Shown: positions 20,285 through 50,325 of the stretch, piece after piece | Numbering within the stretch: position 1 is the first letter of the stretch | Layout of the letters: the number at the start of each line of letters is the position of its first letter | Source: a phage | NCBI GenBank assembly: GCA_018865545.1 | Contig: GCA_018865545.1_3633.1 | Strand: one strand, 5' to 3' | Length of the DNA stretch: 64,000 nucleotides | Program-made: the position numbers and the translations under genes | Notes under the pieces: generated by a model | What the model was told of the DNA's origin: nothing | Seen by the model: only the letters and a program-made list of their open reading frames with translations | Databases searched by the model: none

Positions 20285-20478
20285 GAGAAAAAGAGGATAC
20301 GTGTAAAATATGATGAGTTAGCTATTCGTGTTGCCAAGGGGCTTGAGGGGTACATTCCCGCCAAGAGAAGCCCTTTGGCAAAGAAACATAAATCAAAAAT
20401 AGGTAGTTTTCCACATAATCTATAACCAACTAAGAGATGGGCGACGATACAGTCAAGCCCATCTTGAATAGGAGGAGT

Positions 20479-22515
20479 ATGAAAGGGCTTTTTGTCGGAG
20501 ATAACGAAGCTGACGGATTATTAGAAGAGGCAACTAAATATCACTGCACACTTTTTAAAGAATATGCTGTAAATAACTGGGTGTTGTTTCTCGATCCTGC
20601 TCACAAGGAATACCAGAGTGCAGTTAATTTTGCACGCAGCAAAGAAGGTGTTAATTTACGTATCCTTTCTTATGATGATTTTTACTCTTGGTTGCAGACC
20701 GAGCCAAGAGGGATAGCAATACATAACCTGTTCGGCTATGATTTACGTCTGTGGAAAAAACTTTCTGGGATTGAATATGACATGTTCAAAGACCCAAAAT
20801 GTATGGGGACGATAGGTAATAAACAGGTAAATCTTTACGACACTCTTTCAATGAGTCGTGTTCTTTACCCAGATCGCCCATTGCCTAATGGCTGCCCAGA
20901 TTCTGTATTGAACCCTGTAACAGGAAAACGTGACAGGGTTGGGCCACACGGCTTATTGGCATGGGGTTATCGTGTAGCAAACAAGAAAGTGCAGATTGAT
21001 GATTGGCGTAATCAGCCATTGTGGGAATATGTAAACCGTGTGTGGGAAGACGTTATCATTAACGAACTTGTGTGGAAAGCTCTTATTGATGAGTCAAATG
21101 GTACGCGATGGCCTGATGACAAGCAGTTTATGTACACTGATAAACCTCACGGGATGCACCAGATTAATTGGAAAAATGCATTACGTAGGAGAATGCTCAC
21201 AGACTATTTGATGATAGAGCAAGAAATACAAGGCGTATACTTTAATCGGGAGGAGGCAGAAAAATTAAGAGATCGCATAGATAAGATGATGCGAGAAATT
21301 GAAGAAGAGGTAGAACCACTTCTTCCAAAAAAAGAGATGACGAAATCTCAACAACCAAAATTCCCAGCTAACCCTTTTGACACAGCGGGTAATATATCTC
21401 ATCATGGGTGGAATTGGTTGGAATATAAACTTGGCTATCCTGTTAACAGGGAAGCTCTGGAGTTTAAAGCTCCACCAAAAACAGCTTTTAAGAGTAATGG
21501 GGATGTAAGTGCAGCAGGGGAGAGATATTGCATCCAGAATGGCATTGAAGATCCGGCTTTATACGGTGATTTCATTCGTTCCCAGCGAACCAAAGAGAAC
21601 ACACTCGAACCTTTACCGCCAGATCTTCTAGAGAAGGCTAAAGAAGACCTTCGAAACAGAAAAATGCCAGATTTAATGGTTCCAATGAAAATCTCTAATC
21701 AAGATGATATTAAAAAATATTTGATCAAAGATGCTGGTTGGAAACCTACACTGTGGCGTGTAAAAGATGTTACTAAGGATCAATTTAAAAAGACTCGTGA
21801 AGATTCTGAAATTGATGTACTAGTTAAGAAGTACATAGAAGAGTTGGCAGAGTCTGAGTATAAATCTCTTATTCTTGACTACCTTAATGATTCAGATGAG
21901 AAATTCAACATTTCAGAGCGTAAGTTTGACCATCGCCATGCATCTGAAAGGGGTTATTCAGAGATATTTAAGAAATTTCGGCGTAAAGCACGCCAGTTAC
22001 CGACATCTCCTCAATTAAAAGATAATTTTGGGCATCTGTGTCCAAATTTGGAGAAAATTGATGTGCATATGGCAAAACAGATTGTTAAGTGGCTATCACT
22101 TCGTAACAGGCGATCTGTTTTAGACCCAATGGATGAGGATAAGACGGATACAGGGTTATTAAATCACCCTCGTTTAGACATTGACGGAAAACTTCCAGCA
22201 CGTTTTTCTGGAATCACTAACACGGGCAGGTGCAAGCATACTGTTTGCGCAAACATGCCCAAGCCTGATCCGAAGGTTTTGTTGGGAAAAGAAATGCGGG
22301 GTCTTTGGACAGTCCCTGAAGGCTACTACCTGATGGGTTGTGATGGATCTAACTTAGAAGGTATGATTGCAGCGGCAGGGGCTTTTGAGTTTGATGGTGG
22401 TGAGTATTTACGTATCATGATGGAAGAGGATGCCCATGAACGAAACGCAAGAGCATACACAATAGCAGCAGGAAAGGAGGTAACACGCTCTGGAGGAAAG
22501 GGGGTTACGTATGGT
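20479..22515 (+). CDS. family-A DNA polymerase, exon 1 (3'-5' exonuclease to start of motif B)
   Basis: start ATG 20479 after AGGAGG; Exo I-like FVGDNEADGL; motif A-like CDGSNLEGM; ends ...RSGGKGVTYG, the first half of motif B. Confidence 0.75.
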
Positions 22516-23249
22516 TAATGATAGCCCCCTTACAAAGTAATTTGTAAGGTGCACCCATTGAATTGCTGGGAAGTCTGACCGAGTTATGTCGAAGATAATC
22601 AGCAGGTAAGCGAATGCTTCCCTCTTACAAAAGGAGGGAGAATATGAGTACATTTTGTTGTATAATCTGCGGTGAACAATGTGTTAAAACTGGTAAAAAT
22701 CAAAAAGTATGTCTCTCTGAAGGTTGTAGAAGAGAATATTCAAAGATAAAAACCAGAGAATATAGACGCAGAAAGGCCGAAAGAGAAAATAGGCTTGACA
22801 GAGTTGGCATAGGAAAAGGTGGTGGGCAGCCTCGTGGGAAATTGTCCAAATTTTATAAAAATGGCATATCGATGTTTCGTAAGTTATCCCCTGTCATAAA
22901 GGAACAGAGAAGATACTGTAATAGATGTAATAAAGATCTTCTTTATGCAGGTAAGGATGAGTGGTGCGTTCATCATATTGACCATGATAGGACGAATAAC
23001 GAAATAAGTAATTTTGAATTACTTTGTAAAAAATGCCATCAAATAGAACATAAATGTTGGGAAGCATTCGAAACTTCAACGACTAGCCGAAAGGCGTAGG
23101 GCCAAGCGGTGAGGGAAACCTCCAGTCTTTCAGACTGCCGAAGCAGTGGGCATCCTGAAAAGGATGAAGATATAGTCTGATCTGCATAGAAATATGTAGC
23201 AGTTCCTAAGAGGACGGGCATGGTGTAGCGAGCCATGTTGAACAATATG
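22516..23249 (+). mobile_element. group I self-splicing intron (IA-like) in the DNA polymerase gene
   Basis: exon 1 ends in U, intron ends in G; P-like AATTGCTGGGAAG (22561-22573), Q-like AATCAGCAGG (22597-22606), R-like TTCAACGACTAG (23075-23086), S-like GAAGATATAGTCTG (23166-23179); several GNRA-capped hairpins; HNH ORF between Q and R. Confidence 0.75.
22644..23099 (+). CDS. intron-encoded HNH homing endonuclease
   Basis: N-terminal Cys-rich zinc-finger-like region; C-terminal CVHHIDHDRTNN...CKKCH HNH motif; start ATG 22644 after AAGGAGGGAG. Confidence 0.7.
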   Translation: MSTFCCIICGEQCVKTGKNQKVCLSEGCRREYSKIKTREYRRRKAERENRLDRVGIGKGGGQPRGKLSKFYKNGISMFRKLSPVIKEQRRYCNRCNKDLLYAGKDEWCVHHIDHDRTNNEISNFELLCKKCHQIEHKCWEAFETSTTSRKA

Positions 23250-23882
23250 ATCATGTATGGAGCACAAGCTCCTAAGATAGCCGCAATGCTGGGTATCCCC
23301 CTTAATAGAGCACAGGCTGTAATAGACGCATTCTGGGATAGTAACTTCGGGTTGAAAATGCGTAGAGAGTGGTTAGAAAAATTCTGGGAGGCAAATGGGA
23401 GACGCTATATTCCAGGCATGGACGGGCGTAAAATTTGGACTCGTTCTAAACATTCTCTGCTGAATGCTTACCAACAAAACGGTGGTGCTTCATTGTTTGA
23501 CCTCATGGGAGTCCTGTTCCATTGGGAATTGGTGAAACGGGGATGGTACGACCAAGGTGTCAGGAGGGTTATCTACTACCACGATGAGATACAGGTACAA
23601 GTACCGGAAAGATTTAAATCAATAACGGAGCATTCTAACTTAGAGGCTGCACAAAGCTATGTAGACATGATGCTTGAAAAAGGCCATCGTTTCGACGGGC
23701 ATTATGTGAAAGCAGGTAAAGTTATTGTTGAACCTGATGTGTATGGGAAATACAGGATACTGCATTGCCCAGTAGGAGAGCTTGCAACAAAATGTGTAGA
23801 AAAAGCATCTAAGATAATGGGACTTCCCGTTTTAATTACAGGAGAATATCTTTGTGGATACACATGGGCAGATTCCCACTGA
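23250..23882 (+). CDS. family-A DNA polymerase, exon 2 (rest of motif B, motif C)
   Basis: begins IMYGAQAPKIA, completing motif B (K..YG..YGA...KI) when joined to exon 1; YYHDEIQV matches motif C. Confidence 0.75.
   Translation: MMYGAQAPKIAAMLGIPLNRAQAVIDAFWDSNFGLKMRREWLEKFWEANGRRYIPGMDGRKIWTRSKHSLLNAYQQNGGASLFDLMGVLFHWELVKRGWYDQGVRRVIYYHDEIQVQVPERFKSITEHSNLEAAQSYVDMMLEKGHRFDGHYVKAGKVIVEPDVYGKYRILHCPVGELATKCVEKASKIMGLPVLITGEYLCGYTWADSH
23854..23870 (+). repeat. direct repeat, copy 1 (flanks freestanding HNH gene)
   Basis: GTGGATACACATGGGCA; 14 of 17 nt identical to copy 2 at 24410-24426. Confidence 0.4.
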
Positions 23883-24492
23883 TGAAGTAGAGGAAATTTG
23901 GAAGGATATCGTAGGGTATCCTGATTATCAAGTAAGTAATTATGGAAATGTAAGATCTTTTAAATCAGGAATGTGGAAATACTTAAAAACTAAAAGTGAA
24001 AATTTATCTCCACAATGCTATCCGAGCGTGTGCTTGTACAAAAGGGGTAAAGATTCAGGGAAAAGTTTTTCAGTCCATAGACTTGTAGCGGAGGCTTTTA
24101 AAGAGCCTCCTTCTCCAGAATTGCAGAAAGAATGTAGAAAAACTGTGCTAGGAGTTCCAATTATAAACCACATAGATGGTGACAGACATAATAATAGGGT
24201 TGAAAATCTTGAGTGGTGTACCTATAGCCATAACAATACAGTGGCTTATGGTATGGGGAGAATCCAAAAATTTGGTGATGATTATCATTTATCTGTTCTT
24301 ACAAAGGAGAAAGTTTTAGAGATTGTACGGCTTATTGATTGTGGGATAACACACAAAGCTATTGCGGAACTATTCGGAGTTTCCAGAAATACAATATCTT
24401 CTTTAAATAATGGATACTCATGGTCACATGTCACAGGAAGACCTAAGAAAGTCCAGAAAAGAAGATCAAAAACAGACCCTATATCAGAGTAA
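23854..24492 (+). CDS. freestanding HNH homing endonuclease (NUMOD4-like N-terminus, HNH, C-terminal HTH)
   Basis: EEIWKDIVGYPDYQVSNYGNVRS; HIDGDRHNNRVENLEW; HTH-like ITHKAIAELFGVSRNTIS; GTG start overlaps the polymerase 3' end. Confidence 0.65.
   Translation: MDTHGQIPTDEVEEIWKDIVGYPDYQVSNYGNVRSFKSGMWKYLKTKSENLSPQCYPSVCLYKRGKDSGKSFSVHRLVAEAFKEPPSPELQKECRKTVLGVPIINHIDGDRHNNRVENLEWCTYSHNNTVAYGMGRIQKFGDDYHLSVLTKEKVLEIVRLIDCGITHKAIAELFGVSRNTISSLNNGYSWSHVTGRPKKVQKRRSKTDPISE
24410..24426 (+). repeat. direct repeat, copy 2
   Basis: ATGGATACTCATGGTCA. Confidence 0.4.
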
Positions 24493-24502
24493 GGTAAAAA
24501 TA

Positions 24503-24874
24503 ATGAAAGTAAAAGGAACCAAGACAACAACACAACTTATTGATGTTGAAGTAAACGACTCTGAAATCAAAAGAATCATAGATAGCCAAGACAAAATAAT
24601 CTTGGCAGAAGCAATTCAACAAAAACTTTTAAACAAATTCTTCAAAAGATGCCTACCTTCAATAGACGGAGAGATTATCGTAAGAAAGGACGCTAAGGCT
24701 GGCAATAGAGGAACACGGGTCTTCGTCCATGTTGATGCCGATTGGGATTACCATAATAATGTTGGTGTGGATAAAGAAATCAGGCCATTGACACACGGAG
24801 AGATTGTGCTGTATGAGAACATCCGAAAGCTACCTGAGTATATAATGTCGTTGGATGCTGAATTGGCTAATTAA
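24503..24874 (+). CDS. hypothetical protein
   Basis: start at ATG 24503. Confidence 0.4.
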   Translation: MKVKGTKTTTQLIDVEVNDSEIKRIIDSQDKIILAEAIQQKLLNKFFKRCLPSIDGEIIVRKDAKAGNRGTRVFVHVDADWDYHNNVGVDKEIRPLTHGEIVLYENIRKLPEYIMSLDAELAN

Positions 24875-24940
24875 GAACACTTGCTATAGGCAATCTGTTT
24901 GTGTATCATTTCGCTACCTGACACTTTGTGGAGAATTTCT

Positions 24941-25360
24941 ATGAGAAATGTAAAGATACATGCAATACCAAGTGACTATTTATCACCCCCTGTACAAGGG
25001 AGTTCCTTCTGTACAGACATGGTTTCTTACGATGACTACAAGAAACTGGAGGGTATGTTCATTGACGTAGCATCAGAAAATGCACTCCTAAAGAAGTTCA
25101 TTCGTGAGAGTTGTTATGTTTTTGATGGGGAACAATCTGATATCTCTGATGCATATACCCCAGCAGATCAATCACTTTTAATGCCTGGTTTGGAAGCCAC
25201 ACAGAAGTTTTCTACAGAGATGATGGCTCAAGGTGTTCATATGTACGGTATGCTCACAATCCGTATCGGAGAGCAGGAGCAAGAAGAAAGCATCATCTAT
25301 GCGGGAAAGCAAGCCCTTCTTTATGCAGAACAACTTCGTAATGGAGATTTCGAACAATGA
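24941..25360 (+). CDS. hypothetical protein
   Basis: start at ATG 24941 (track start 24899 is TTG). Confidence 0.4.
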   Translation: MRNVKIHAIPSDYLSPPVQGSSFCTDMVSYDDYKKLEGMFIDVASENALLKKFIRESCYVFDGEQSDISDAYTPADQSLLMPGLEATQKFSTEMMAQGVHMYGMLTIRIGEQEQEESIIYAGKQALLYAEQLRNGDFEQ

Positions 25361-47074: not shown

Positions 47075-48195
47075 TTATTGAGGGACAGCAAGAATAAGAT
47101 TAATGTTATCCATATTAGCTGTCTCTATTTGCTGATCAATCATATTCCGTAATTCTCCAGCATCTATTTTAATTGTTATTTCACCACTGACAGGCTCGGT
47201 AGGAATAACCATAGGAGCTACAATTTGACCCGCAGTAGATCCGCCCGGCATCAAATTATGGGATTGAAGATAGTTGGCTTTATCCTGCATATGCCCAGCC
47301 CAAAGCGATGTCCACCAACTACTTAACATCCCTCCGGTAACAGCCATTAAGTCACCACCACCAAATGAATAAGCATTTCCAAGATCTTGTTTTTTAGCGT
47401 TCTTTTCACTATCGTTGGAATTTACGTAGTCGTATCCCATAAGGGCAGCAGCAACGTAGGGATTTCGTATAGACCACCCTAGCAGCTTACCAAAAACCCC
47501 ACTTCGTTTCCCACCACCTTTCCTATCCCACGGTCCATTACCACCGCTATTACCTCCCCCAGATTTTGGTACGTCCGGCCCACCAAAAATTTCTTTAAGA
47601 ATTTTTAATGTTCCCGTTATTCCAGCAATTTTAGCCAAGATTCTGAATACTCTAACCAAGGAAGCTGCGAAGAATAGAGCACCGAGACCCCAACCTACCC
47701 AGTTAGTCGCTTTTTGGAATGTCTCACTTTTCTTTATCCATTGTGGGATATACATGTTTAATTCTGCATTTATAAAAATGCAGACATTAGATATCGTATG
47801 TGCGATATCCATAAAGCCCTTTATGAATCCAGAAGTAAATTGTCCAACTTTCTCAGCTAACGGTCCTTTAGCATCCAACATGTGGGACAAATCATTAAAC
47901 GTCTTAGTTAATTCATCCCCAAATCCACTTTCAAATATCTTATTTTGAAAGTTCATCCATGTTTGTTGTAAACGCTGCATAGCAACACGGTTGCTTTGTT
48001 GTGCCTTGGTAAGTGCACCACCTTTTCTTGCGGCCTCGGCATAATACTTAGCGACCAAAGGAAGAATTTTTGAAGCCTTTAGCTCCCCATTCTTCATCAT
48101 ATCCATTAATTTTGCAATGTCTATAGATGAATCATTGAATGCTTCTTGTGTGGCTTTAAGGAATACATCAAGGGAACCAGGGATGCCCTCGGCTA
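47075..48195 (-). CDS. tail tape measure protein, C-terminal part (putative exon 2)
   Basis: frame is open upstream of the first ATG (48106) to 48196, directly abutting the structured intron core; Gly-rich segment; 5' limit uncertain by a few nt. Confidence 0.5.
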
Positions 48196-49014
48196 CTTAT
48201 TGTCCCCTCAGTTCGCTACACTGAGGCGGTGTGCTAAAACACCCGCCACATGTTTCCATGTGGAACAGACTATATCTTCCTCTGATTTTACAGAGGCCAA
48301 CCATTTCGGAGCGGCTTCGCCCCTACTCTCCTACACTCATCGGAGATAGTCGTTGAGCACATAACTTAAAGATTTTTTAATAAACGTCGCCAAGCATTTT
48401 TATGTTTTATCCTGTGGATAGTTGATCTTGTTACACCAAACTCATTCATTAAAGATGTTGTATCCTCAAAACGCCTGTGGTAAATCCTAATAACTTGATC
48501 TTCTGTTAATTTGCAATTAGGATTTCTTTTTCCATCTACGGAGTTTAGACCTTTTGAGAAAGCATGTTTTTGGTTCTGCGACCTAGTAACATACTCCAGA
48601 TTATCTTTGTGGTTGTTGGCCTTATTACCATCTTTATGGTTAACTTCCATTTTTGGATGTGGCGGTTCACCAATGAATGTTAATGCGACTATCCTGTGTA
48701 CAAGATACAATACACACTTTCCGTCTACCCTAAAGTAAACTCTTTTATATCCATTGTGTATTGTTTGCTCAGTTAGTTTCTTCCATGTACCTCTTTTTGT
48801 TGAAAAGATTGCACCATCTTCTCGACAAAAGTACCCGTTATGTCCAGGCACGGGTCTAATCTCTAAGTTACTTCGCTGCGGATTGTCCATTGTTACATCT
48901 CCAAACTTTTTACTATACCTGAGATAGTTATTCTCAGCCATTATTATGTTACCATAATAATTTAGTATTTGGTAGCTTTAGGAGTTCCCCGCAATTAGAT
49001 TGGTTTTACAACAG
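48196..49014 (-). mobile_element. group I intron (IA-like) with HNH ORF; minimum extent, 5' splice site unresolved
   Basis: minus-strand RNA carries R-like CAACGACUA (48347-48355), S-like GAAGAUAUAGUCUG (48266-48279), GNRA-capped P9-like hairpin, P-like AAUUGCGGGG (48987-48996); GC-rich stem-dense segment 48200-48360. Confidence 0.6.
48366..48941 (-). CDS. intron-encoded HNH homing endonuclease
   Basis: NUMOD4-like N-terminus; HNH motif EVNHKDGNKANNHKDNLEY; C-terminal HTH-like region. Confidence 0.7.
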   Translation of the reverse strand: MAENNYLRYSKKFGDVTMDNPQRSNLEIRPVPGHNGYFCREDGAIFSTKRGTWKKLTEQTIHNGYKRVYFRVDGKCVLYLVHRIVALTFIGEPPHPKMEVNHKDGNKANNHKDNLEYVTRSQNQKHAFSKGLNSVDGKRNPNCKLTEDQVIRIYHRRFEDTTSLMNEFGVTRSTIHRIKHKNAWRRLLKNL

Positions 49015-50325
49015 CTAGTATGTCAACTGTTGTTTTAATTCTTCAGCCATGATCTGACCTTTACCCATCATTTGTTGGATAGCGGTAATACCACGCTGGA
49101 ATTTTACAGGATCAACCTGAAGTGCAGTAGCATATTCTGAGAAACCTTTGAACAGTTCGTCATTTTGCGCCTTGCTCAAAACACCTTTGGCAGATATGGA
49201 CATTTGGGTATAACCTTGGGCGGCGGTTTTTAAATCCAAACCCAATCTGTAAGATTGCTCCCGAACAAACTGTATTCTTTTCGCTGCTTCTTCTGAGTCA
49301 TCAGAAACCATTAACATGGTAGCTTCCATGCCTTGAAAGAATTGTCCTGTTTTCACAACACTTGCGGCAGCATTAAAAGCTCCGTATGCAGCAGAAACAC
49401 TAATTAATGTGCTACGAAGGTTTTTCAATCCTTGATCAAGAGATAGTGTATTTGCCTTAGCTTTGCGGAGTCCTGTTTCCATTGCTGCCAATTCAGCACG
49501 GAAATTAGAAGCTCTCATAGTCTGGCTTTGCATAAATCTCTTTTCCAGATCATCATAACCTTTAATTTTAGACCTGAAATCATCACCATACTTAGCACGA
49601 AGTCTTACAGCAGCATTAGCAATTGTTGATTGTTTTGCAGCCTTTATCCTTTCTGCTCTTAACGCTTCTCTTTCTTTCTTCTTATTAGCATCTTTTTCTG
49701 CCTTAATCTCATCCGCTGTTTTTTCTTTCGGAATAGATTTATGATAGCGTTCCATAGCAGAGTTCTGGGCAGCCACAAGACTTGGATCGTGACGACTATT
49801 AGGATCCCCAACAATACCAGAGGCAGACCCTGAAGACTTTCTTGCTGCAAGTTCTTGCTGCAATCTTGCTTGACGGGCAGCAGATATTTCTGGATTTGTT
49901 CCATATCCAGAACCTGTTTTTTCCATCTGCTTCAACTTTGATTTTAATGCATTATATTCTTTTTGTTCTTCAGGTGTTCTTCTGTTTGTTAGTCTGGCTA
50001 CTGCTTGCTTTCTTCTCGCGCTCTCAACTTTGGCTATTTGTTCACGAGCACGAGCTTCCTTTTTTGCCATTGCAATAGCATGTGCCGTAGATTTTGCTTG
50101 CTCTGCACGTTCAGTTTGGTGTAATCTTTTAGCTACAAGACGAGCCTCTTGCGCAGAACGTTTATAAATTGCTGCCGGATTACTTTTATTAGAAGTGAAA
50201 GCTCTGTTAGTCTTTTCCCATTCCTTCTTCAGGGATTTTATAGCTTTCATTGCACGACCGTAACTGGTGCGATCTACAGACCACTCGACAGCATTTACGG
50301 TTTTAGTTACTATGATATTCGCCAT
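49015..50325 (-). CDS. tail tape measure protein, N-terminal part (putative exon 1)
   Basis: Ala/Lys/Glu/Arg-rich coiled-coil; directly downstream of the frameshifted chaperone pair; the last 20-30 codons may be intron-encoded. Confidence 0.5.
   Translation of the reverse strand: MANIIVTKTVNAVEWSVDRTSYGRAMKAIKSLKKEWEKTNRAFTSNKSNPAAIYKRSAQEARLVAKRLHQTERAEQAKSTAHAIAMAKKEARAREQIAKVESARRKQAVARLTNRRTPEEQKEYNALKSKLKQMEKTGSGYGTNPEISAARQARLQQELAARKSSGSASGIVGDPNSRHDPSLVAAQNSAMERYHKSIPKEKTADEIKAEKDANKKKEREALRAERIKAAKQSTIANAAVRLRAKYGDDFRSKIKGYDDLEKRFMQSQTMRASNFRAELAAMETGLRKAKANTLSLDQGLKNLRSTLISVSAAYGAFNAAASVVKTGQFFQGMEATMLMVSDDSEEAAKRIQFVREQSYRLGLDLKTAAQGYTQMSISAKGVLSKAQNDELFKGFSEYATALQVDPVKFQRGITAIQQMMGKGQIMAEELKQQLTY

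Follow-up and report, generated by a model that had tools for sequence, protein, structure and literature searches.

A probable free-standing I-HmuI-like homing endonuclease on a 622-bp cassette immediately 3' of an Avunavirus phage's DNA polymerase gene, and a 17-nt repeat that appears to have no role

Free-standing endonuclease genes occur in phages at intergenic sites by conserved replication genes, as described for the "intronless homing" of T4 mobE and the seg genes (PMC2988022), and their favoured locations include polymerase genes and the boundaries of genetic exchange (PMC10448857). Pectobacterium phage CB7 (Certrevirus, Vequintavirinae) has two HNH-bearing polymerase introns that splice, and an adjoining free-standing HNH gene, CB7_54, that does not (PMC7344957). 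In phage T3, gene 5.3 / I-TslI are presented as a case of collaborative homing (PMC3428280, PMC2988022). At the protein level, I-HmuI of Bacillus phage SPO1 (PDB 1U3E) is a nicking enzyme of a DNA polymerase intron and has an N-terminal beta-sheet (NUMOD4) region, an HNH domain and a C-terminal helix-turn-helix.

The gene described here, 23854..24492 on the plus strand of a 64,000-nt window (the whole stretch of DNA that was analysed), has the same three-part architecture. It is probably the free-standing gene of an I-HmuI-like HNH homing endonuclease, borne by a 622-bp cassette at an intergenic site immediately 3' of the polymerase gene, where the 17-nt repeat that had drawn attention to the locus is without a role. 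The window and CB7 share both a subfamily and a layout, going by the published description of CB7, which gives no cassette boundaries, polymerase-internal start codon or empty-site alleles (PMC7344957). The consequences are limited: this is another uncharacterised I-HmuI-like endonuclease, and its layout has been reported before from this phage subfamily.

Pfam, phmmer and AlphaFold/Foldseek agree on what the 212-aa product is. NUMOD4 matched at 41.8 bits (cut-off 23.4), HNH_3 at 32.9 (24.8), HTH_7 at 27.9 (23.8) and HTH_23 at 26.8 (24.6), and the sole solved relative matched by sequence was I-HmuI (PDB 1U3E; phmmer E 1.8e-10). An AlphaFold model built from 42 homologues reached a pLDDT of 91.4, with helices at residues 151-194, and in a Foldseek comparison with the PDB its sole match below 1e-3 was again I-HmuI (1u3e_M, E 6.2e-8, probability 1.00, 184 columns, 30% identity); the TM-scores against 1u3e_M were modest (0.47 / 0.57), as expected for an extended multi-domain protein. 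In the beta-beta-alpha-metal HNH motif, the catalytic His and the Asn residues (H106, N118 and N127) are invariant in alignments of 10 and of 42 homologues. On the strength of sequence and model, the product is a predicted homing endonuclease of the I-HmuI-like type, NUMOD4 + HNH + helix-turn-helix, uncharacterised but of a kind already well known. Like I-HmuI, it is associated with a phage DNA polymerase gene. However, a group I intron houses the I-HmuI gene, whereas the window gene is free-standing past the stop codon, and the window protein differs in an N-terminal extension of 11-15 residues, encoded where its gene overlaps that of the polymerase, and in a C-terminal tail that is basic and longer. 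The window and Escherichia phage Av-05 versions of the gene differ by six synonymous and three conservative codon changes. In a large protein database we found a 100% cluster and then a nearest relative that was 43% identical, with no intermediates.

By its sequence the window is assigned to an Avunavirus (Vequintavirinae) coliphage, and its identity to Av-05 is 97-98%. A megablast search with 22400-25000 found Av-05 (Vequintavirinae, Avunavirus) to be 98.4% identical with the full query covered, and phages 18-1-2 (L002), 19-1-2, 24-2-1 and TH18 to be ~96% identical over 76% of the query. In addition, one Logan contig (L026) was 100% identical to the window across 8.6 kb, and two metagenome contigs, OVXI01000004.1 (L015) and ERZ1090861 NODE-1373 (L017), were retrieved via an exact 23-mer of the polymerase 3' end.

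The family-A DNA polymerase gene upstream, also on the plus strand, was mapped by tblastn with the uninterrupted polymerase of VIK251. Exon 1 (20437..22515) ends ...GKGVTYG, and within it 20551-22515 aligns with VIK251 residues 1-654 (85% identity). It is followed by an intervening sequence of 734 nt (22516..23249, plus strand) that is a probable group I intron, judging from an Rfam RF00028 match at 22996-23199 (46.8 bits, E 8.8e-10, which is below the gathering score of 50) and from the protein-alignment junctions TATGGT/TAATGATAG ... AATATG/ATCATG, and that contains a separate HNH ORF (22614-23099) with weak Pfam HNH/HNH_3 matches below the cut-off. Exon 2 (23250..23882, plus strand), to which VIK251 residues 655-880 map at 23250-23879 (its Pfam DNA_pol_A match is weak and below the cut-off), ends ...ITGEYLCGYTWADSH with the stop TGA at 23880-23882. 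Within exon 2 lies the empty site of a second group I intron at YYH/DE (23580..23585, plus strand, between 23582 and 23583; blastn breakpoints 23581/23583). This second site is filled in Av-05 by 845 bp with an HNH_3 ORF that is 33% identical to the free-standing HNH protein (E 5e-16), in 18-1-2 and L017 by 318 bp with no ORF (the 18-1-2 insert matches RF00028 at 91.2 bits), and in L015 by 832 bp.

Comparison with cassette-less genomes defined the mobile unit exactly. Blastn and sequence comparison against 18-1-2, L015 and L017 place the cassette proper at 23881..24502 on the plus strand (622 bp). It is present in the window, and hence in the identical L026, and in Av-05, and absent from 18-1-2, 19-1-2, 24-2-1, TH18, L015 and L017, which is the length polymorphism among related phages that the original prediction had anticipated. 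The flanks are conserved: window 23583-23880 and the sequence from 24503 on are 94-99% identical to the HNH-less genomes (95-99% for the polymerase flank, 94-98% for the downstream flank), and this polymorphism between conserved flanks bears out the proposal that the HNH gene is a discrete mobile cassette. The left end of the cassette falls within the polymerase stop codon, TGA in the window and TAA in the empty alleles, and its right end, 24502, is the base before the ATG of the next gene. In place of the 622 bp, the empty alleles have 47-48 bp, ...CCCACTAA AAATGGTAAGGTGCTGAAAAGCACCTTTTT(T/A)... GAGGTGG(C/T) ATG, comprising a terminator-like hairpin and then a ribosome-binding site. On the question that had been raised, whether relatives lacking the HNH gene retain one repeat copy and a contiguous polymerase/downstream junction, these genomes keep a single 17-mer (copy 1), and the distinct 47-48 bp spacer occupies the junction. 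The exact map of the cassette, together with its empty-site allele, supplies ready substrates for target mapping. Between the empty-site spacer and the 3' end of the cassette we also noted possible GTAAGGT and TAAAAAT microhomology, which is too short and too out of order to interpret.

The HNH ORF, as originally noted, overlaps the polymerase 3' end, and the overlap with the polymerase gene through its stop codon is 29 nt. No Rfam match overlaps 23854-24502, even at E values up to 1, and because an intron signal is absent and the polymerase reading frame is complete upstream, the HNH gene is free-standing. That is, 23854-24492 does not lie inside a group I intron interrupting a host gene; the cassette is situated between the polymerase stop and the next ATG and is neither an intron nor an intein.

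What, then, is the 17-nt repeat? The original prediction had the HNH gene flanked by two imperfect direct repeats, copy 1, GTGGATACACATGGGCA (23854..23870), and copy 2, ATGGATACTCATGGTCA (24410..24426), both on the plus strand, and offered two explanations for them, an insertion footprint of the cassette or a duplicated translation-initiation segment. We found both 17-mers where they were said to be, with 14 of 17 bases in common (a repeat search extends the match to 16/19), and each does read M/V-D-T-H-G in its own frame. They do not flank the gene, however, as copy 1 ends 10 nt to the left of the cassette start and copy 2 is inside the HNH ORF, with 77 nt separating it from the cassette's right end. 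Moreover, the 14/17 match does not exceed chance. When 23801-24560 was shuffled 300 times with its dinucleotides preserved, 42% of the shuffles held one or more 17-mer pairs with at least 14 matches, and qualifying windows averaged 1.1. For a fixed 17-mer and up to three mismatches, only 0.12 further matches are expected across the whole window, but that expectation looks rare only if the site was chosen in advance.

The coding content of the two copies is informative. In the polymerase frame, copy 1 reads tgt GGA TAC ACA TGG GCA, or C-G-Y-T-W-A, close to the protein end ...CGYTWADSH*, and its +1 frame gives V-D-T-H-G. We take this stretch to be the conserved G-x-x-W-x-x-x-H terminus of family-A polymerases (Klenow, Taq, T7). 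Among relatives the C-terminal polymerase motif is CGYTW, TGANW, TGRSW or TGRNW, and copy 1 is base-for-base unchanged in the HNH-less L015 and L017. Copy 2, in the same codon phase, reads aat GGA TAC TCA TGG TCA in the HNH frame, or N-G-Y-S-W-S, and belongs to the C-terminal DNA-binding region of the endonuclease. A G-x-S-W-[SA]-H motif is kept at this position in the alignment of 10 homologues, which come from Klebsiella, Vibrio, Bacillus, Pectobacterium and Enterococcus phages (for instance TGRSWSS, TGRSWAH and NGSSWAH), so that it is found in the helix-turn-helix region of Bacillus and Vibrio phage homologues too, and at least 90% of the 42 database homologues keep the copy-2 tryptophan, W190. 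Copy 2 is intrinsic to the HNH family. Mydovirus phages with the same polymerase-HNH order have equivalent 17-mers that match at only 8-11 of 17 positions, and the resemblance in the window is a lineage-specific accident. Because runs of G-Y-[TS]-W codons give MDTHG when read in the +1 frame, the shared MDTHG is not an independent signal. The 17-nt repeat is a coincidence, without a role, of G-Y-T-W-A in the polymerase and G-Y-S-W-S in the endonuclease in equal codon phase.

These observations bear directly on the idea that the 17-mers are a target-site duplication or other footprint left by entry of the cassette. In favour of such a footprint are the 14/17 match, in which copy 1 coincides with the 5' end of the ORF, and the fact that cassette-less relatives retain copy 1 alone. 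But the indel ends, 23881 and 24502, differ from the positions of both repeats, and in the cassette-less junctions compared we did not find direct repeats at the exact ends of the inserted DNA with a single copy at the empty site. Furthermore, copy 2 is within the cassette in a motif kept by homologues of unrelated phages, copy 1 is a conserved polymerase terminus identical in cassette-less genomes, orthologous Mydovirus sites match poorly and an equally good pair is obtained in a large share of shuffles. The cassette-less junctions refute a footprint, which we regard as next to impossible. To our knowledge, target-site duplications are not created in homing by break repair. The case is a cautionary one: where two conserved peptide motifs, unrelated to each other, are read in equal codon phase, they can produce short "flanking repeats".

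The second explanation, that a translation-initiation segment was duplicated so that the HNH gene and its downstream neighbour would each start with M-D-T-H-G, takes the ATG at 24410 as the start of the downstream gene. Besides the MDTHG of both frames, it can draw on phage 18-1-2, in which the polymerase-embedded GTG is in frame with the downstream gene and was annotated as its start by RAST. In L015 and L017, however, a spacer of 47 nt puts the downstream gene in another frame than the GTG ORF, which terminates at a TGA. The ATG at 24410 has no Shine-Dalgarno sequence and is out of frame within conserved HNH codons shared with the Mydovirus orthologues (...TG.P.K...K...P.S), and it is very unlikely to be the start. 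We place the downstream gene at 24503..24874 on the plus strand (123 aa), where TAAGGT occurs 8 nt upstream of the ATG. The Av-05 annotation uses the equivalent ATG, alignments with homologues (44% identity) begin at residue 1 of the ATG 24503 product, and homology with the HNH-less genomes resumes exactly at this ATG, the spacer upstream of it being unrelated. With copy 1 forming the polymerase C-terminus, copy 2 a conserved HNH motif and MDTHG a mere +1 reading of G-Y-[TS]-W, a duplicated initiation segment is barely credible, and the preferred reading remains that of a cassette on which the repeat has no role.

A further question is "Where does translation of the HNH gene begin?" The probable initiation site (23840..23856, plus strand) consists of AGGAG at 23840-23844, a 9-nt spacer and GTG at 23854-23856, and lies within the polymerase codons for T-G-E-Y-L-C-G. 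From the in-frame stop at 23833 to the NUMOD4 motif, this GTG is the sole canonical start, and the Av-05 annotation starts the HNH gene at the same GTG. Mydovirus orthologues, on the other hand, have their own AAGGAG-N4-ATG ~26 nt past the polymerase stop, whereas in the window the ancestral ATG is GAG and the spacer is ~19 nt shorter. Given this replacement, expression of the HNH gene would rest on the putative GTG start, and since that start is within the polymerase gene, the first nine codons of the endonuclease would be polymerase sequence in the +1 frame. The N-terminal 10 residues of the model have a pLDDT of only 61, which is consistent with a borrowed, unstructured leader. RNA folding of 23815-23935 was unremarkable (z = -1.6), and promoter and terminator scans gave nothing above shuffles. 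We also considered a polymerase-HNH frameshift fusion and rejected it, as it needs a +1 shift, there is no obvious slippery site by eye and a good Shine-Dalgarno sequence and GTG are at hand.

The same facts could be read to mean that the HNH gene is decaying and no longer expressed, a relic whose own ATG and ribosome-binding site are gone and whose frame is open only because the loss was recent. The missing Mydovirus ATG and AAGGAG, the GAG, the shortened spacer and the low pLDDT of the first residues would all fit such a relic. Yet two lineages retain an intact frame of 212 codons with the catalytic residues conserved, a good AGGAG-N9-GTG is in frame, and an unrelated start-less HNH-AP2 cassette, described below, uses the same GTG, which argues that the start works. 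We therefore consider decay very unlikely and retain the interpretation of an intact endonuclease gene with a putative polymerase-embedded start.

Examination of other genomes revealed that the site 3' of the polymerase gene is a hot spot with three states: empty, occupied by NUMOD4-HNH, or occupied by an unrelated HNH-AP2 gene. In the sister genus, the Mydovirus phages NDO71, Ro1, VIK251 and Seu621 and the K54 phages have a homologous NUMOD4-HNH gene (37-40% identity) directly after the polymerase, and in Mydovirus KB57 the site is empty, with a terminator hairpin and ribosome-binding site there. Klebsiella phage Iguana_ER37 and contigs L014, L016 and L019 have an unrelated HNH_3 + AP2 gene at the site, and the last 268 nt of the polymerase gene are 100% identical between Iguana_ER37 and NDO71. 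In Vibrio phage PWH3a-P1, too, a homologue comes after a polymerase gene. Both cassette types, NUMOD4-HNH-HTH and HNH_3-AP2, begin exactly at the polymerase stop codon. The HNH_3-AP2 gene of Iguana_ER37 and L014, which is without a start of its own, opens at the equivalent GTG (V-D-I-R-G-Q-I-R-T-K...), as the Iguana_ER37 annotation also has it. As both types open at one GTG, their first residues are common, V-D-T/I-H/R-G-Q-I-P/R-T, and represent polymerase sequence in the +1 frame. That two different cassettes are in frame with a single polymerase-embedded GTG suggests that this start is really used.

How might such a cassette have spread? We envisage that in a mixed infection the enzyme would nick or cut the DNA of relatives without the cassette, the polymerase 3' region or its vicinity being the likeliest target, and that recombinational repair from a cassette-bearing genome would copy the cassette in, replacing the short terminator-containing spacer. 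Translation could then begin at the pre-existing Shine-Dalgarno sequence and GTG within the last ten polymerase codons. Over ~2.1 kb of flank in five genomes, the differences linked to the cassette were the stop-codon columns 23881 and 23882 and one site, 25777; with otherwise no flank polymorphism linked to the cassette beyond the stop codon, there is no co-conversion tract to prove homing over ordinary recombination. Two candidate marks were examined and set aside. The window and 18-1-2 differ at three synonymous positions of copy 1 (23858, 23861 and 23864), which might have been taken as a mark of target-site immunity or co-conversion, but L015 and L017 carry the window version, and a divergence from 18-1-2 that rises near the cassette proved, in the five genomes, to be an excess private to 18-1-2. 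Among the Mydovirus phages divergence peaks near the intron sites and near the HNH gene. As the independent cassette-bearing genomes number two, the window (with L026) and Av-05, and the next relative is only 43% identical, recent spread is undocumented.

Is the gene instead kept for the benefit of the phage, for example in attacking the polymerase gene of co-infecting competitors or in some other domesticated role, rather than as a selfish homing gene? Precedent comes from PhiPA3, whose intron-encoded endonuclease is described as interfering with a competing phage (PMC11620839). The position beside the polymerase is kept across genera, and the codon changes between the window and Av-05 genes resemble purifying selection. 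Against this, the gene is dispensable in close relatives, and a beneficial role and homing are not mutually exclusive. Such a role in place of homing seems unlikely to us, and a homing endonuclease on a mobile cassette remains the reading that we prefer.

Collaborative homing was reportedly described by Bonocora & Shub in 2009 for phage T3 gene 5.3 / I-TslI. The window gene resembles that system, and T4 mobE / seg, in being an intergenic free-standing gene beside a replication gene that is patchy among relatives, with an intron-encoded homologue in the same gene of a relative, the Av-05 intron-2 ORF. It differs in that no dependence between intron 2 and the cassette is visible here. We had considered such a dependence as a candidate, but all four combinations of intron-2 occupancy and cassette presence occur, so none can be claimed and nothing concluded on this point.

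Finally, the occupancy of the site by two cassette types raises the prospect, to which we would assign somewhat less than an even chance, that the polymerase-embedded Shine-Dalgarno sequence and GTG form a fixed "docking" start for interchangeable endonuclease cassettes, whose enzymes may also target the intron-2 site, as in T3 gene 5.3 / I-TslI. If so, expression of the endonuclease would be coupled to translation of the polymerase, and the polymerase 3' end would serve both as a homology arm and as a translation-initiation region. Two unrelated cassettes that borrow one start within an essential gene would then be selfish genes plugging into the expression signals of their host, a small point but one that the locus illustrates.

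As read from their sequences, the family-A DNA polymerases of Mydovirus, the sister genus of Avunavirus, are mosaic, and the boundaries of exchange fall at the intron and endonuclease sites. The polymerase proteins of VIK251 (L006) and Ro1 (L005) share 91-96% identity as far as the insertion site of the second intron, and over the last ~100 residues the identity is just 47-51%. At the nucleotide level, identity among Mydovirus genomes also drops immediately 5' of the first intron site and over the HNH gene's 5' half.

The first of these sites is occupied in the window by a probable group I intron of 734 nt (22516-23249), which splits the polymerase after GKGVTYG and matches Rfam RF00028 with 46.8 bits, slightly below the gathering score of 50. 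This intron holds an HNH ORF of 161 aa (22614-23099) of a type unlike the polymerase-adjacent HNH, and in metagenome contig L015 the intron is present without it. The second group I insertion site lies within polymerase motif C (YYH/DE; between 23582 and 23583) and has no insert in the window. Other genomes have it filled: Av-05 with an 845 bp intron that holds an HNH_3 ORF (L001 4183-5026), 18-1-2 (L002 4183-4500) and metagenome contig L017 with a 318 bp intron lacking an ORF (RF00028, 91.2 bits), and L015 with an insertion of 832 bp. The bases at the site read caC/gat in the window versus caT/.../gat in the three intron-bearing alleles compared, those of Av-05, 18-1-2 and L017.

At the post-polymerase site, Klebsiella phage Iguana_ER37 (L024 1705-2247) and contig L014 (13054-13596, minus strand) carry an HNH_3 + AP2 endonuclease gene unrelated to the window's HNH gene. 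Lacking its own start codon, the HNH_3 + AP2 gene opens at the GTG embedded in the polymerase, as the window's HNH gene does. NDO71 and Iguana_ER37 have identical polymerase 3' ends, yet the cassette of NDO71 is of the NUMOD4 type.

The polymerase 3' end of the Ro1 record (L005; L013) reads GTGGCAGATT versus GTGGGCAGATT in relatives, with one G absent, so that the annotated frame runs into the HNH region; the annotated CDS is 2670 nt long and terminates within the HNH gene. The missing G probably reflects a mistake in sequencing or assembly, or else a genuine frameshift.

In the cassette-less genomes the polymerase-embedded GTG begins a short ORF across the spacer (L002 4772-4849; L015 and L017, reverse strand), which may be a coupling leader or else due to chance. 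It stops in L015 and L017 at a TGA overlapping the next gene's ATG (ATGA). In 18-1-2 the GTG shares the reading frame of the next gene, whose start was placed there by the RAST annotation.

Elsewhere in the window, an additional putative HNH ORF of 191 aa (48366-48941, minus strand) shows 30% identity to the polymerase-adjacent HNH in a tblastn comparison (E 5e-12). The two large minus-strand ORFs on either side (47075-48106 and 49015-50325) resemble, by eye, halves of one tape-measure-like protein, and the arrangement may represent a further gene interrupted by an intron or endonuclease.
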